Source: Thermodesulfovibrionales bacterium (GTDB lineage Bacteria > Nitrospirota > Thermodesulfovibrionia > Thermodesulfovibrionales > UBA9159). From it: 44,180 bases of DNA. Below the pieces are notes generated by a model. The model was given only the letters and a program-made list of their open reading frames with translations. It did not search any database and was not told the origin of the DNA. Below, piece after piece: positions 37,021-43,033 of the stretch (its first letter is position 1; every line of letters starts with the position of its first letter). The stretch covers positions 1 through 44,180 of the forward strand of contig JBKBUA010000005.1 of the NCBI GenBank assembly GCA_046290845.1, in the 5' to 3' direction. The position numbers and the translations under genes are program-made.

Positions 37021-38619
37021 ATGAGGCGCCTCTTTGTCACGATAATGATCCTCTATCTTCTGATCTCCTTTGTTGGAATTGTCTCGGTAAGCACGAGATT
37101 AATAAAAATAAAGGAAAAAACAGAATCACTTACTGAAGCACAGAGAAGCCTTATTAAGAGGGCTGAGTTTAAAGATCTTATCTTTGAGACAAGAAGGGCA
37201 ATCGAGGAAAAGAGGGATGACCCCGAGATATTGCTCTTGATTGATAGAACGAAAGTTAAGATCAAAGAATGTTACAGCTGCCACCATCCCGACCACATAA
37301 TAACCATAATAAGAGATACAGAAAAGGCCGTAAATGCCCTTGTCTCACCTGCTATGGAAAAGGATTATGCCACTTTACTTAATATAACCGGAAAGATTAC
37401 CCCTTTTGTTAAGAGAGCCTTTGAACGAGCAACCTCTTTATCAGAGACAAGGCTTGAATCAGCAGTAAAAGAGATAAACAGGACAGAAAGGGTTATGACA
37501 ATCACGGCAATAGCAGGAATACTGTTATTCCTCACCCTGTCTATAATAGCACTCTATCGTGTATCACTCCTTCAGTCTCGGATCAAAGAGAGAGAGAGAT
37601 CCCTTGAAAACTGGGCCAAACAATGGCAGCAGACCTTTGACTCTATTCAGGACTGCTTAATGATACTGGACAGGGATAGCAACCTGAAGATGACGAATAA
37701 ATCCGCAAAAGAGACCTTTGGTGAGGTTATAATAGGATATCCTTTTATGGAGATGCTTGGTGTACCCTCAGTTAAAAATATCCATGACCTCTGTAACTCT
37801 AAGGGCGGTATCGAGTTCACAAAAGGAGATAGGGTTTATCATATTAAATCATACCATCTGCACCTGGACTATGACGAAGATTTTATCGTTGTGATACGAG
37901 ATGTAACATCGGAAAAAGAGATGGAGCAGAGATTGATTCAGGCAGAAAAACTATCTGCCTTAAGCAGAACCATGGCAACCGTGGCAACGGAATTACACAA
38001 TCCCCTTACATCTGTAAGTAAATACAGTGAGGTACTGCTGGATCTATCCACGATAAACAAGAGGATACGGGAAATAGCTGACAAGATCAGCATATCAACA
38101 TCAAGGATGAGCGGTATCGTGGGAGAACTGCTTCTATTCTCAAGGTCGCCCATTCTGAATAAAACCCCTGTTAACTTTAAATCCCTAATAGAAGAAATCT
38201 TTAAACTCATCAAAGAAGGCATGGACATGAGAAAGATAAACCTGATAGCTGAATCTGAAGATGTTACCATAACTGCTGACAAGACAAAGATAGAGCGAGC
38301 TCTTTTGAGTCTCATTACGAACTCTATAAACAGGATCAATCGGTCAGGTAAAGGTGACAGGGTAGAAATTAGAGGGTACAAAGAAAAGGGACTGTTTCAT
38401 ATCCATATATGTGATAATGGCCCTTTCATACCGAAAGAAATAAGCCTCAGACTCTTTGAACCCTTCTTCACTGACTCTGTATTCAATACCCAGGAAGTTA
38501 GAAAGTCCGGGCTTAATCTCAGCATGAGTTACAATATAATCAGGGCCCATAATGGTGATATCGTTGTAAAGAGCACAGAAGATGAAACTGTATTTTCTAT
38601 AGAACTGCCCTCAGGTTAA
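37021..38619 (+). CDS. Sensor histidine kinase: TM, ~135-aa outer domain with a CxxCH motif, TM, PAS, HisKA, HATPase
   Basis: Likely ATG at 37021 (MRRLFVTIMILYLL). CYSCH at 37270-37284 lies between the two TM helices. H-box ATELHNPLTS. G-boxes in the C-terminus. Confidence 0.85.
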   Translation: MRRLFVTIMILYLLISFVGIVSVSTRLIKIKEKTESLTEAQRSLIKRAEFKDLIFETRRAIEEKRDDPEILLLIDRTKVKIKECYSCHHPDHIITIIRDTEKAVNALVSPAMEKDYATLLNITGKITPFVKRAFERATSLSETRLESAVKEINRTERVMTITAIAGILLFLTLSIIALYRVSLLQSRIKERERSLENWAKQWQQTFDSIQDCLMILDRDSNLKMTNKSAKETFGEVIIGYPFMEMLGVPSVKNIHDLCNSKGGIEFTKGDRVYHIKSYHLHLDYDEDFIVVIRDVTSEKEMEQRLIQAEKLSALSRTMATVATELHNPLTSVSKYSEVLLDLSTINKRIREIADKISISTSRMSGIVGELLLFSRSPILNKTPVNFKSLIEEIFKLIKEGMDMRKINLIAESEDVTITADKTKIERALLSLITNSINRINRSGKGDRVEIRGYKEKGLFHIHICDNGPFIPKEISLRLFEPFFTDSVFNTQEVRKSGLNLSMSYNIIRAHNGDIVVKSTEDETVFSIELPSG

Positions 38620-40025
38620 TTTCTCGATCTTTTCAGATCGAGATTATATCTCTTTATCAGACGATGAATCGTCTTCCTGTTAATACCTGCGATTTCTGCA
38701 GCCCTGCTAATATTGACCGATGTGTTTTCGAGGAGAGACTGGAGATAATTCTTCTCAAATGCCGCAAGCCACGCCTCCTTAGCCTCCCTATAAGGCAAAG
38801 GATTCTGAAGGCTATTATCAACAGTTCTTTGAGTCTCCCATCCATCTAATCCCTGGGACCTTAAGTTTTCAGGAAGGTCTTCTATCTCGATCCTCCCGCT
38901 AACAGTCATTATTACAGCCCTTTCTATCACATTTTGTAATTCCCTTACATTTCCTGGCCACCCATATGCTTCAAGGGCTGACATCGCTCTGGGAGAAATC
39001 GAGTCCACATTCTTCTTATGAATACTATTAAACCTCTTCAGAAAATGAATGGCAAGAAGTGGTATGTCCTCCTTTCTTTCCCGGAGAGGTGGAATATGTA
39101 TATGGATGACATCTAAGCGATAATAGAGATCTTCGCGGAAAGAACCCTGCTGAACAGCCTTCTTCAGGTCTCTGTTTGTAGCCGATATAATCCTTATATC
39201 AACAGGAATAAATTTATTGCTTCCAAGCCTTCTAACAACCCTCTCCTGAAGGGTTCTCAATAATTTTGCCTGAAGGCTCAAAGACATCTCTCCAATCTCA
39301 TCAAGAAAGAGTGTTCCTTCGTGAGCAGTCTCGAGAAGCCCCTTTTTCATTGTGTTAGCCCCTGTGAAGGCACCCTTCTCATAACCAAAAAGCTCTGATT
39401 CGAGGAGATTTTCTGGAAGGGCTGCACAGTCAACAGGGACAAAGGGTTTGGCACTCCTTCGACTCCTTGAATGAATTACCTTAGCAACCATCTCTTTCCC
39501 AGTTCCACTCTCGCCTGTAAGGAGTATATTTGCATCTGTACTCGCTACACGATTCACCACCTCGGTCACTTCACACATACCAGCCGATTTCCCGATAATA
39601 TCAAGATCAGAACAGACCTTTAACTGCTCTCTTAACTGCCTGTTCTCATCAGTAAGGTTCTTATACTTCAATGCCCTATCGAGAGTGATCCTGAGTTGTT
39701 CAGATGAAAAAGGTTTGGTTATAAAGTCAAAGGCTCCTCTCTTAACTGATTCAACAGCGGTAGGGATATCGCCATAGGCCGTAACGAGGATAACAGGTAT
39801 TGCAGCATTTAACTCTCTGATCTTTTCGAGAAGGTCAAGACCGTTTATATCTGGCATCCTCAGGTCACTAATGACTATATCAGGATCAAAAGAATCTATC
39901 ATCTCCAGGGCCTTTTTGCCATCGGTCTGGGTCAAACAGTCATAGCCCATCTTATTTAAGAGACGATAATAATTATTCAGCATCTCCTCCTCATCATCTA
40001 TAGCGAGGATTCTTGCCTTCCTCAT
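38616..40025 (-). CDS. Sigma54-dependent response regulator (NtrC family: REC-AAA+-Fis HTH)
   Basis: REC (ILAIDDE, ISDLRMPDINGL). Walker A GESGTGKE. GAFTGA loop (YEKGAFTGA). C-terminal HTH ISRAAEIAGINRKTIHRLIKRY. Confidence 0.93.
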   Translation of the reverse strand: MRKARILAIDDEEEMLNNYYRLLNKMGYDCLTQTDGKKALEMIDSFDPDIVISDLRMPDINGLDLLEKIRELNAAIPVILVTAYGDIPTAVESVKRGAFDFITKPFSSEQLRITLDRALKYKNLTDENRQLREQLKVCSDLDIIGKSAGMCEVTEVVNRVASTDANILLTGESGTGKEMVAKVIHSRSRRSAKPFVPVDCAALPENLLESELFGYEKGAFTGANTMKKGLLETAHEGTLFLDEIGEMSLSLQAKLLRTLQERVVRRLGSNKFIPVDIRIISATNRDLKKAVQQGSFREDLYYRLDVIHIHIPPLRERKEDIPLLAIHFLKRFNSIHKKNVDSISPRAMSALEAYGWPGNVRELQNVIERAVIMTVSGRIEIEDLPENLRSQGLDGWETQRTVDNSLQNPLPYREAKEAWLAAFEKNYLQSLLENTSVNISRAAEIAGINRKTIHRLIKRYNLDLKRSRN

Positions 40026-42386: not shown

Positions 42387-42388
42387 AC

Positions 42389-43033
42389 TCAGAACCTCCC
42401 ATCAAGGTAACGCAAGGCATCAAAGACATCTCTGGCTATGTAGTCAACATCAAGGTCTTCAGGTCTTGCCTGTTGAATCGCCGCACCACCAGCTATTACC
42501 TTTATATTATCAAGACCTTCTTCCCTCAAAATACTTTTGATCTTCCTTATGAATGGGATATTTATGGTCAGAAGACTGCTTATTCCTATGTATCTTGCTC
42601 CTTCTACTACCGCCATTCTTGCAAAGTCAACGGGGTCCACATCACGGCCGAGATCAATAACCCTGAAACCCCTGGCAGTTAGCAAGGTACTTACCACATG
42701 TTTCCCAAGGTCGTGGATGTCTCCCCTGATTGTACCTATAACTATTGTCCTGTTAGGATCCCTTATAGGTTGAATAGAAGGAAGATTCGGAGAGATAACC
42801 TCCTCAAGGACAGCCATCATGGCCCGGCCTGCGAGCATTATCTCGAGGAGATTAAACTCCTCATTCGTACATTTAACATCAAGAGACCTGAGAGCCCCGG
42901 TTAAGCCATCTTCTATAATAGACTCAAAGGAGAAACCCTGGCGAAAAAGGCCTTCGGCTATTGCTACCGCTTGCTCCGCCTCCCCTTTTATTATGGCCTC
43001 AATAAGGTCATCTAACTGGATTGCTACATCCAC
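42389..43033 (-). CDS. Corrinoid (B12)-binding protein, MtaC/MtbC-like (helical cap + Rossmann B12 domain)
   Basis: DxHxxG motif in TIRGDIHDLGKHVV. B12-binding_2-like N-terminal bundle. GTG start. Confidence 0.85.
   Translation of the reverse strand: MDVAIQLDDLIEAIIKGEAEQAVAIAEGLFRQGFSFESIIEDGLTGALRSLDVKCTNEEFNLLEIMLAGRAMMAVLEEVISPNLPSIQPIRDPNRTIVIGTIRGDIHDLGKHVVSTLLTARGFRVIDLGRDVDPVDFARMAVVEGARYIGISSLLTINIPFIRKIKSILREEGLDNIKVIAGGAAIQQARPEDLDVDYIARDVFDALRYLDGRF

Follow-up and report, generated by a model that had tools for sequence, protein, structure and literature searches.

Here we describe a cassette of four genes on a 44,180-bp contig of a Thermodesulfovibrionales (Nitrospirota) metagenome-assembled genome (MAG), in which a corrinoid protein and an MtaA-like protein of the uroporphyrinogen decarboxylase (URO-D) fold are encoded together with a soluble GAF histidine kinase and an NtrC-type response regulator, next to a gene for N2O reductase (nosZ). 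The contig in its full length is referred to as the window. The coupling of the genes, the signatures of the protein family, its association with signalling outputs and with nosZ, and a promoter with upstream sites were established by sequence and comparison. This evidence gives good support to two predictions. The first is that the corrinoid/URO-D pair, with a RACo-type activase in most lineages, would serve for sensory input and would not be a metabolic pair of enzymes; the second is that the cassette would signal via its kinase and NtrC-type regulator to the sigma-54 promoter that precedes the N2O reductase genes. The explanation as a whole, in which the cassette would be a member of an undescribed type of signalling module that senses through its corrinoid, with N2O as the likely oxidant in the nos-linked branch, seems to us evenly poised.

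A translationally coupled cassette and its relatives

According to the open reading frame (ORF) coordinates and the DNA itself, the four cassette genes follow each other on the minus strand (Table 1), with a 2-nt gap between the corrinoid and URO-D genes ('TTC TGA gt ATG ACA'), an ATGA overlap between the URO-D and kinase genes (AAATGAAA) and, by coordinates, a 32-nt overlap between the kinase and regulator genes. The four genes are translationally coupled. This is the layout described in a first-pass annotation made from the sequence alone; its domain calls (B12-binding, URO-D/MtaA fold, GAF kinase, NtrC type) are each backed by Pfam, and the motifs GDIHDLG and GAFTGA that it cited are both found in the window proteins. 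Two points had escaped it: a second kinase gene convergent with the cassette, and the presence of RACo inside the cassettes of relatives. NCBIfam holds no dedicated family for the cassette proteins, all four of which score under every curated cut-off, and a sigma-70 promoter/terminator scan of positions 36700-43450 yielded 20 matches versus 14 ± 4, which is not above chance, and no promoter for the cassette.

To place the cassette in a family, URO-D homologues down to ~33% identity were collected from a protein database, 185,579 species genomes and JGI metagenomes, and the loci were surveyed with corrinoid, URO-D, RACo, DUF1638 and signalling-domain queries. At least 114 loci with a URO-D identity of at least 33% (L001-L114) carry a corrinoid protein gene, a URO-D gene, usually a RACo gene and then a signalling gene. 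They occur in Nitrospirota, Nitrospinota, Desulfobacterota, Chloroflexota, Acidobacteriota, Actinomycetota, Bacillota, Rhodocyclales, Chromatiales and methanogenic archaea. The N-terminal reader domain of the signalling protein, a divergent GAF domain of ~150-180 aa, is homologous over 86 loci, while the outputs attached to it differ and include histidine kinases (HisKA or HisKA_2), hybrid kinases with a receiver (REC) domain, GGDEF, HD-GYP and SpoIIE/PP2C domains. One reader with many outputs is a hallmark of a sensory input module. In addition, several of the parts are fused to each other: the corrinoid protein to the URO-D protein (P0044, P0246) or to RACo (P0248), and RACo to the GAF histidine kinase (L085, L087). 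A Nitrospinota variant consists of NtrC, the corrinoid protein, a URO-D::RACo fusion and a PAS kinase (L081, L084, L086, L100, L107-L112). As a control we used 55 loci with 27-31% URO-D identity (L115-L169), which lack any GAF, kinase or GGDEF context and a few of which are ordinary methyltransferase clusters. Because the outputs vary and the genes are fused, we interpret the corrinoid/URO-D pair as a probable sensory input and not as an enzyme pair that happens to share an operon with regulators.

The first-pass annotation had remarked that no activase, substrate methyltransferase (MT1) or methyl-acceptor gene lies beside the cassette, and for the window this holds: phmmer with a RACo query found no RACo in the 44 kb, and Pfam scans of most of the larger ORFs found no MT1 or methyl-acceptor gene. 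The missing activase is nevertheless a peculiarity of the window's branch and not a general trait, since most relatives encode within the cassette a RACo-type activase with Fer2, Raco_middle and RACo_C_ter domains, sometimes accompanied by DUF1638 (RACo is present in L004, L006, L009, L015, L083, L171 and about 70 others). The near-universal RACo suggests that the Co(I) state belongs to the working cycle of the family. The DUF1638 gene, where present, stands between the URO-D-like gene and RACo (L004, positions 11011-11706; also L009, L015, L083, L093, L096 and L098); this insertion is limited to NtrC-coupled cassettes that carry RACo, and its product has no NCBIfam family.

A link of the cassette to methylotrophy had been named as an observation that would speak against sensing. 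No MT1, O-demethylase or methylotrophy genes were met in the census of more than 100 loci, in which MT1 was not searched for directly. This bears on a group of older ideas, according to which the proteins sense light or the availability of B12, or are an ordinary methyl-transfer pair whose operon merely includes its regulators. Catalytic corrinoid systems do have the same folds and cobalamin motif, photoreceptors and antirepressors with B12 domains are known, and CarH gives weak matches. However, MT1, MT2 and acceptor genes were absent from the loci within the same limit of the census, and sub-cut-off scores, variable outputs and fused parts do not fit an ordinary pair; RACo would be superfluous in a B12-availability sensor. 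A light sensor is at odds with the corrinoid protein, which contains no Trp and hence lacks the W-x9-E-H signature of the CarH cap, and with the dark anoxic habitats of many hosts (aquifers, peat, methanogen niches). On the grounds of outputs, fusions, scores and the missing Trp we rejected the methyltransferase operon, the B12-availability sensor and the photoreceptor, and consider this whole group of readings very improbable.

Sigma-54 promoters, upstream palindromes and presumed target clusters

The regulator combines a REC domain with a DLRMPD motif, a sigma-54 AAA+ domain with GAFTGA and a Fis-type helix-turn-helix, and scores under every named NCBIfam equivalog cut-off. With these domains, a coupled kinase gene and a -24/-12 promoter nearby, it has the features of an NtrC-type sigma-54 activator. 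The promoter in question, AGGCACGGCTTTTGCT, precedes the genes for a dihaem cytochrome c and NosZ. It had been reported as the only sigma-54 promoter of the window; it is in fact the best intergenic match, but over the whole window the number of consensus matches (17 vs 16 expected) is not above chance, and we single out this element because of its position and conservation and not because of the match count. In every NtrC-coupled locus examined, a strong GGCAY-N5-TTGCW element lies in the intergenic stretch that separates the regulator gene from the neighbouring cluster.

Upstream of the sigma-54 element, at ~60-215 bp, lie one to four copies of the palindrome G(G/A)GACAT-NN-ATGTC(C/T)C. The window has an exact copy, GACATTAATGTC, and a degenerate one (Table 1), both putative upstream activator sites, in a region that coincides with the stretch 36894-36930 proposed in the first-pass annotation for a test of regulator binding. 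The exact sequence GACATNNATGTC occurs once in the window, at the site of the exact copy, and is found at the equivalent place in L001/L002/L091, L092, L010, L015, L098, L170 and L171; elsewhere in 169 loci it appears only three times, in L040, in L049 and once more in L015, where the extra copy falls within the kinase gene. Allowing up to two mismatches, we counted 23 sites in twelve 240-bp upstream windows versus 1.95 expected (Poisson P = 3e-17). Conservation of both the sigma-54 promoters and the palindrome upstream of them ties the regulator to the neighbouring cluster.

A survey of whether the cassette recurs beside nosZ, as had been proposed, favoured the idea: there are 17 distinct NtrC-coupled loci, and 11 of these stand directly upstream of nosZ. 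The adjacent nosZ genes belong to clade I in the window, L001, L003, L009, L011 and L092, and to clade II in L004 (Dissulfurispiraceae), L170 (Desulfosporosinus meridiei) and L010 (D. nitrosoreducens/nitroreducens). The nosZ of L015 was not classified with NCBIfam and is best matched by a clade II query. In L171 (Desulfitobacterium sp. Sab5) the next gene encodes a clade III lactonase-type L-NosZ (NF052460, 915 bits; cut-off 700). The nosZ-linked cassette is thus found in both Nitrospirota and Firmicutes, and its cultured carriers include D. meridiei, D. nitrosoreducens and Desulfitobacterium sp. Sab5. When the URO-D proteins are arranged in a neighbour-joining tree, loci linked to nos form the deep branches (Firmicutes, basal Nitrospirota), whereas the non-nos loci fall into one derived clade.

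A candidate cobalt-based sensor and its alternatives

The corrinoid protein consists of a four-helix bundle cap followed by a Rossmann B12 domain, which carries the His-on motif G104-D-I-H107-D-L-G-K; GD.HDLGK is kept in 104-105 of the 106 non-identical cassette corrinoid proteins. What sets these proteins apart is the cap. The window protein reads K54-C55-T56...F60-N-L-L63...R70, the family consensus is L-D-x-K54-C55-T56-x-E-x-F60-N-L-L63-E-I-M-L-x-G-R70, and C55, T56, F60, L63 and R70 are present in 102/102 full-length homologues among the 106. In a further 120 database homologues the cap Cys is kept as well, with T56 replaced by N or S in some. Catalytic corrinoid proteins, those of the control loci included, have F or Y at the position of C55 (1Y80, 'vgvlFknnemFvPevL'; MttC, 'vgekFgqgelFlPhvL'), so that K-C55-T...F-N-L-L-E stands for the catalytic vG..F.....F.PE.L and the aromatic cap residue is missing. 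The best sequence matches in the PDB are 1Y80 and MttC (7XCN); against TIGR02370, the MtaC/MtbC/MttC-type family, the window protein reaches 108 bits (cut-off 215). A search of a representative library gave 6817 matches at E <= 1e-3 and 15 at E <= 1e-30, and the E-value fails to split sensor-type from catalytic corrinoid proteins, whereas the cap motif does split them. By motif spacing we take C55 to correspond to MetH F708, a cap residue which presumably lies over the cobalt-methyl group. The MetH cap shields the upper face of cobalamin. A Cys that never varies at this point of the cap hints at a change of ligand upon oxidation, with a thiolate binding the cobalt.

The URO-D-like partner has retained the fold of its catalytic relatives and lost most of their zinc site. 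Its (beta/alpha)8 fold is indicated by Pfam and by an AlphaFold2 (AF2) model (pLDDT 95.5) whose best Foldseek match is MtaA (4AY7/4AY8; TM 0.90, rmsd 2.2 A). In the alignment with MtaA 4AY7 obtained by phmmer against the PDB, 'ipwiSiAGp' stands opposite 'vtvlHiCGn', which bears out the WISIAG reading of the first-pass annotation at the expected HxCG site: S235-I-A237 occupies the H-x-C site, and two of the three Zn ligands of the MtaA/CmuA class are gone, the third being retained as C315 within GTGCE. Position 237 is Ala in 99/106 family members and position 235 is His in 59, Ser in 37, Asn in 5 and Gln in 2; H.CG is found in only 1/115 cassette URO-D proteins vs 55/55 non-cassette relatives. 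On the other hand, D68, E72, E74 and R114 are kept in 106/106, and W233, D258, C315 and E316 are kept too. D68 lies opposite the tetrapyrrole-binding Asp of true UROD, where MtaA has Cys. Against the MT2 class references TIGR01463 and NF040654, the protein scores 149 bits with the former (cut-off 235), and with the MtaA equivalog 99 (cut-off 400). Rather than methylating a thiol, the protein probably docks onto the corrinoid protein or uncaps it.

The state of the zinc site also bears on the idea of a methyl-donor sensor, in which the URO-D protein would methylate Co(I) from a methoxy-aromatic compound, a methyl halide or a methylamine, and the GAF domain would tell CH3-Co(III) from Co(I). A corrinoid protein, an MtaA/CmuA-like protein and a reductive activase are exactly what a methyltransferase half-reaction calls for, the corrinoid protein-URO-D fusions resemble CmuA, and the family is common in MAGs from peat, fen and bog. 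Yet the Zn motif of MtaA/MtbA-type relatives is lost, the domain-query census of more than 100 loci showed no downstream methyl-acceptor genes, and a methyl donor offers no rationale for coupling to N2O reductases of three clades; we therefore regard this idea as improbable.

In the kinase, the N-terminal part is a divergent GAF reader (residues ~29-178); behind it come a coiled coil, HisKA and HATPase_c. NtrC-clade readers share C92 (17/17), C113 (17/17), C127 (16/17) and H125 (13/17), which are absent from reader domains elsewhere in the family and may form a metal, haem or disulfide site. The second kinase, which we call HK2, bears a periplasmic haem-c motif (C94-Y-S-C-H). Its gene converges on the regulator gene, with a 4-nt overlap of the stop codons, and points away from the cytochrome c-nosZ promoter. 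HK2 is found in all five loci of the window's clade with 'ECYxCHHP' conserved and without a response regulator of its own, and from this arrangement might provide a second input to the NtrC-type regulator.

We propose the following mechanism. The corrinoid protein would act as a sentinel that binds cobalamin base-off/His-on, with the invariant Cys in the cap where its catalytic kin place an aromatic residue, and would work with the MtaA-like partner, which lacks the Zn site for thiol methylation. The ATP-dependent RACo-type activase of most relatives would return Co(II) to Co(I), and the cobalt state, either Co(I) or oxidised/ligated, possibly as Cys-S-Co, would be read by the divergent GAF domain of the transducer. 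In the window's branch this transducer would be a histidine kinase that phosphorylates the NtrC-type activator, which in turn would bind the GACAT-NN-ATGTC palindromes and fire the sigma-54 promoter before cytochrome c-nosZ. N2O is an oxidant of cob(I)alamin and an inhibitor of processes that depend on corrinoids. In the nos-linked branch the physiological oxidant would most likely be N2O, a signal that makes chemical sense and is attractive on ecological grounds. In this scheme we infer how the proteins read each other, in which direction the switch works, what Cys55 does and that N2O is the signal. Its most specific version, a first dedicated biological N2O sensor in which RACo holds Co(I), the pseudo-MtaA opens the cap, N2O oxidises the cobalt, C55 ligates it and the GAF kinase passes the state to NtrC/sigma-54, we put forward tentatively, as a possibility about which we are still somewhat doubtful. 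Of the corrinoid-sensing hypothesis in the first-pass annotation, the sensory input tied to nos has gained support from context, promoters, palindromes and fusions; the module has proved not to be confined to nos, and the lack of RACo to be branch-specific.

Several observations weigh against N2O as the signal or against parts of the scheme. Six of the 17 NtrC loci (L005, L006, L014, L083, L096, L098) precede a Fer4/Pyr_redox_2-Rieske-cytochrome b cluster instead of nosZ. In L005 and L014, Rieske/cytochrome b is followed by a molybdenum (Mo) enzyme of ~950 aa or longer (truncated by the contig end) that is homologous to the product of window positions 7411-10860, L006 has a multihaem cytochrome in its place, and L083, L096 and L098 end sooner. 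Nitrospinota cassettes adjoin AhpC/TSA-like pairs and bd-like and haem-copper oxidases (COX1/COX2), a neighbourhood which suggests an oxidant- or O2-related role in aerobes, and for most of the ~80 non-NtrC members no nosZ lies closer than 10 kb. From these non-nos targets and nosZ-free members we conclude that the signal at the level of the family is probably broader than N2O. Moreover, O2 also oxidises Co(I); the window cassette is without RACo, so that its activase would be encoded elsewhere or its working mode would differ; the equivalence of C55 and MetH F708 is drawn from motif spacing and not from a solved or modelled complex; the functional statements are based on sequence and comparative evidence only; and the Cys residues of the NtrC-clade GAF or the haem motif of HK2 could be the real gas or redox sensor. 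Further neighbours of the Nitrospinota cassettes are CcmH/DsbD-like genes (cytochrome c biogenesis), an FGE-sulfatase-like gene and SCO1.

The main rival builds on the breadth of targets. It keeps the module and makes it a general redox, anoxia or oxidant sensor, in which low-potential reductant and ATP, through RACo, are set against any oxidant of Co(I), be it O2, NO, nitrite or N2O. Each lineage would connect this sensor to its own terminal reductases, oxidases, antioxidant genes or c-di-GMP signalling, and a general Co(I)-oxidant/redox signal is equally compatible with the data. It would explain why the targets are lineage-specific (nos; FerPyr-Rieske-cytochrome b with the Nxr-like Mo enzyme; AhpC/TSA, bd-like and COX1/COX2 genes in Nitrospinota), why the co-directional array of the window mixes nos, two bd-like oxidases and an Nxr/Nar-like enzyme, and why GGDEF, HD-GYP or SpoIIE outputs without a nosZ in the vicinity prevail in the family. 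For strict anaerobes, Desulfosporosinus and Desulfitobacterium among them, inducing nos on anoxia alone would, however, bring little. The link to nosZ also spans three non-orthologous NosZ clades and holds at URO-D identities as low as 31%, which hints that the cassette is tied to N2O reduction itself. On balance we consider the general signal unlikely, while giving it more weight than any other alternative.

The cysteines and HK2 lead to a further reading, in which the true sensor is either the haem of HK2 or the Cys/His set of the NtrC-clade GAF, which could act as a thiol switch or hold an Fe-S cluster or, like MsmS, a haem; the corrinoid proteins would then only modulate the sensor or be co-regulated. 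The invariance of C92 and C113, the near-invariance of C127 and the presence of H125 in most NtrC-type readers would fit, as would the 'ECYxCHHP' kinase without a regulator of its own beside the regulator gene in the window's clade. Against this, the reader Cys are missing in the rest of the family despite the same corrinoid context, HK2 is confined to the window's clade whereas the link between cassette and nos is wider, and RACo is physically fused to the GAF kinase in some relatives. We give this reading a poor chance.

Relation to known systems and neighbouring genes

The closest catalytic counterparts are the methanol/methylamine:CoM systems (MtaC/MttC, MtaA/MtbA, RamA/RACo), with which the cassette shares three folds and the DxHxxG base-off/His-on site; MtaA is the nearest structural neighbour of the URO-D protein, and an activase stands alongside in most cassette relatives. 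Unlike them, the cassette has S/H-x-A for H-x-C, Cys for the aromatic cap residue and a signalling gene next to it. Among regulators, CarH/LitR and AerR/PpaA are light sensors that use AdoCbl or photolysed cobalamin, with a DNA-binding domain fused or bound directly; an upper-axial protein ligand forms on signalling, and they are not known to need a URO-D partner, an activase or Co(I). Here too, a cap + Rossmann B12 module would control transcription, and the axial ligand idea is conceptually like the proposed Cys55 switch, but the cassette has a stand-alone corrinoid protein feeding a two-component system, without a DNA-binding domain and with a CarH match of only E ~1e-4. In Methanosarcina, MsmS and RdmS are haem-GAF kinases encoded beside Mts genes; the GAF haem senses, a GAF Cys is functionally important, and the corrinoid/methyltransferase fusion is the regulated enzyme. 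The cassette resembles this arrangement in having a GAF kinase beside corrinoid and MtaA-like genes and conserved Cys in the NtrC-clade reader, and differs from it in its catalytically degenerate corrinoid pair, its many outputs and its targets, which are nos or other respiratory clusters.

Control of N-oxide reductases is represented by NorR, a one-component sigma-54 activator with an NO-sensing non-haem iron GAF, by the Crp/Fnr proteins NssA-C and NNR, and by DNR and NosR. The cassette is like these in its dedicated or sigma-54-dependent control of an N-oxide reductase and, in the case of NorR, in the GAF sensory element; to our knowledge, none of them uses a corrinoid. Known nos regulators respond to O2, NO or nitrate. 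In a non-denitrifying N2O reducer, nitrate and NO cues from upstream denitrification would be less informative. In Paracoccus, N2O reportedly inactivates cobalamin and shifts gene expression via B12 riboswitches and MetH/MetE (Sullivan et al. 2013); unlike this indirect effect, the cassette is proposed to be a dedicated protein sensor that controls nos. According to the D. nitrosoreducens paper, strain PR grows with N2O as electron acceptor and shows no sulfate reduction; PR carries the cassette (L010), and the paper shows its nos cluster without mentioning regulators. A 2024 study still listed the N2O-sensing mechanism as something to identify, and a full-text literature search, which did not cover the L-NosZ paper (He et al. 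2025, Nature 646:152), found neither the module nor a protein N2O sensor described; the photoglobin/B12 systems and the sigma-54 regulon survey that it returned are unrelated to the cassette. From its sequence features we rate the cassette as a putative new kind of sensory system built from known folds, and as a strong, testable candidate for the long-sought sensor of N2O (or of a cobalt oxidant).

N2O reducers are the only biological sink of this greenhouse gas, so that a switch of nosZ matters for mitigation and for biosensor design, and the hypothesis can be tested in the cultured N2O respirers D. meridiei DSM 13257, D. nitrosoreducens PR and Desulfitobacterium sp. Sab5. If the mechanism holds, bacteria and archaea alike would use a redox-cycled B12 as signal input and couple it to kinases, c-di-GMP or phosphatases. 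Independently of N2O, the family would add an ATP-resettable redox cobalamin input with a disabled methyltransferase that feeds two-component, c-di-GMP and PP2C pathways, and would give a function to many genes annotated as 'uroporphyrinogen decarboxylase family' or 'cobalamin-binding'.

Table 1. Cassette, regulatory elements and neighbouring genes in the 44,180-bp window.
Feature	Positions	Strand	Description
Corrinoid protein	42389-43033	-	214 aa; Pfam PF02607 (B12-binding_2) and PF02310 (B12-binding)
MtaA-like URO-D-fold protein	41373-42386	-	337 aa; Pfam URO-D PF01208, 191 bits
Soluble GAF histidine kinase	39994-41376	-	460 aa; Pfam GAF_2, HisKA, HATPase_c
NtrC-type response regulator	38616-40025	-	469 aa; Pfam Response_reg, Sigma54_activat, HTH_8
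HK2 kinase	36991-38619	+	transmembrane segment (TM) 1, helical periplasmic domain of ~130 aa with CXXCH, TM2, HisKA, HATPase
Putative upstream activator site	36917-36928		degenerate palindrome copy; minus-strand reading GACATCAAGTTC
Putative upstream activator site	36896-36907		exact palindrome
Sigma-54 -24/-12 element	36815-36830	-	58 nt before cytochrome c ATG; 1.8 kb from regulator gene
Dihaem cytochrome c	35911-36756	-	forms with NosZ the presumed first target operon (34085-36756); Pfam
Clade I TAT-dependent NosZ	34085-35896	-	TIGR04244, 827 bits (cut-off 625)
Unusual nos accessory genes	30698-34007	-	762-aa protein, NosR-like Fer4_5 membrane part fused to NosD
bd-like oxidase subunit I, region	20968-25469	-	
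Two NosL paralogues	19718-20962		
Tandem-Usp protein	15692-16771	-	inside respiratory supercluster
Radical SAM/SPASM protein	14436-15704	-	C-terminal PCP_red; inside respiratory supercluster
bd-like oxidase subunit I, region	12767-14455	-	
Nxr/Nar-like type II DMSO-reductase complex	4627-12303	-	co-directional array with nos
Cytochrome c of the complex	11578-12303	-	
NarJ-like chaperone	10844-11638	-	
Nxr/Nar-like Mo subunit	7411-10860	-	1149 aa; homologues are an alternative cassette target in at least L005 and L014
Fer4_11 beta subunit	6268-7401	-	
EB_dh gamma subunit	5336-6259	-	

The window NosZ has an RRNFLK motif, and its TAT_signal score of 21.4 bits is just below the cut-off of 22.7. 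Downstream on the same strand, the nos supercluster continues with an FMN-binding protein, a Fer4_5::NosD fusion, NosF, NosY and two NosL; the FMN-binding protein is a separate protein of 361 aa that precedes the fusion. One of the two cytochrome bd-like oxidase genes belongs to a set of four genes, which encode the bd-like oxidase, a 173-aa protein, a cytochrome c and a cytochrome c-EB_dh protein, and the same set adjoins the Nitrospinota cassette L081. In L171 (Sab5), a hemerythrin gene (9368-9772) lies directly upstream of the cassette, and a few kb away, at 4682-7380, a second, shorter URO-D family gene is accompanied by a HisKA_3/GerE two-component pair.

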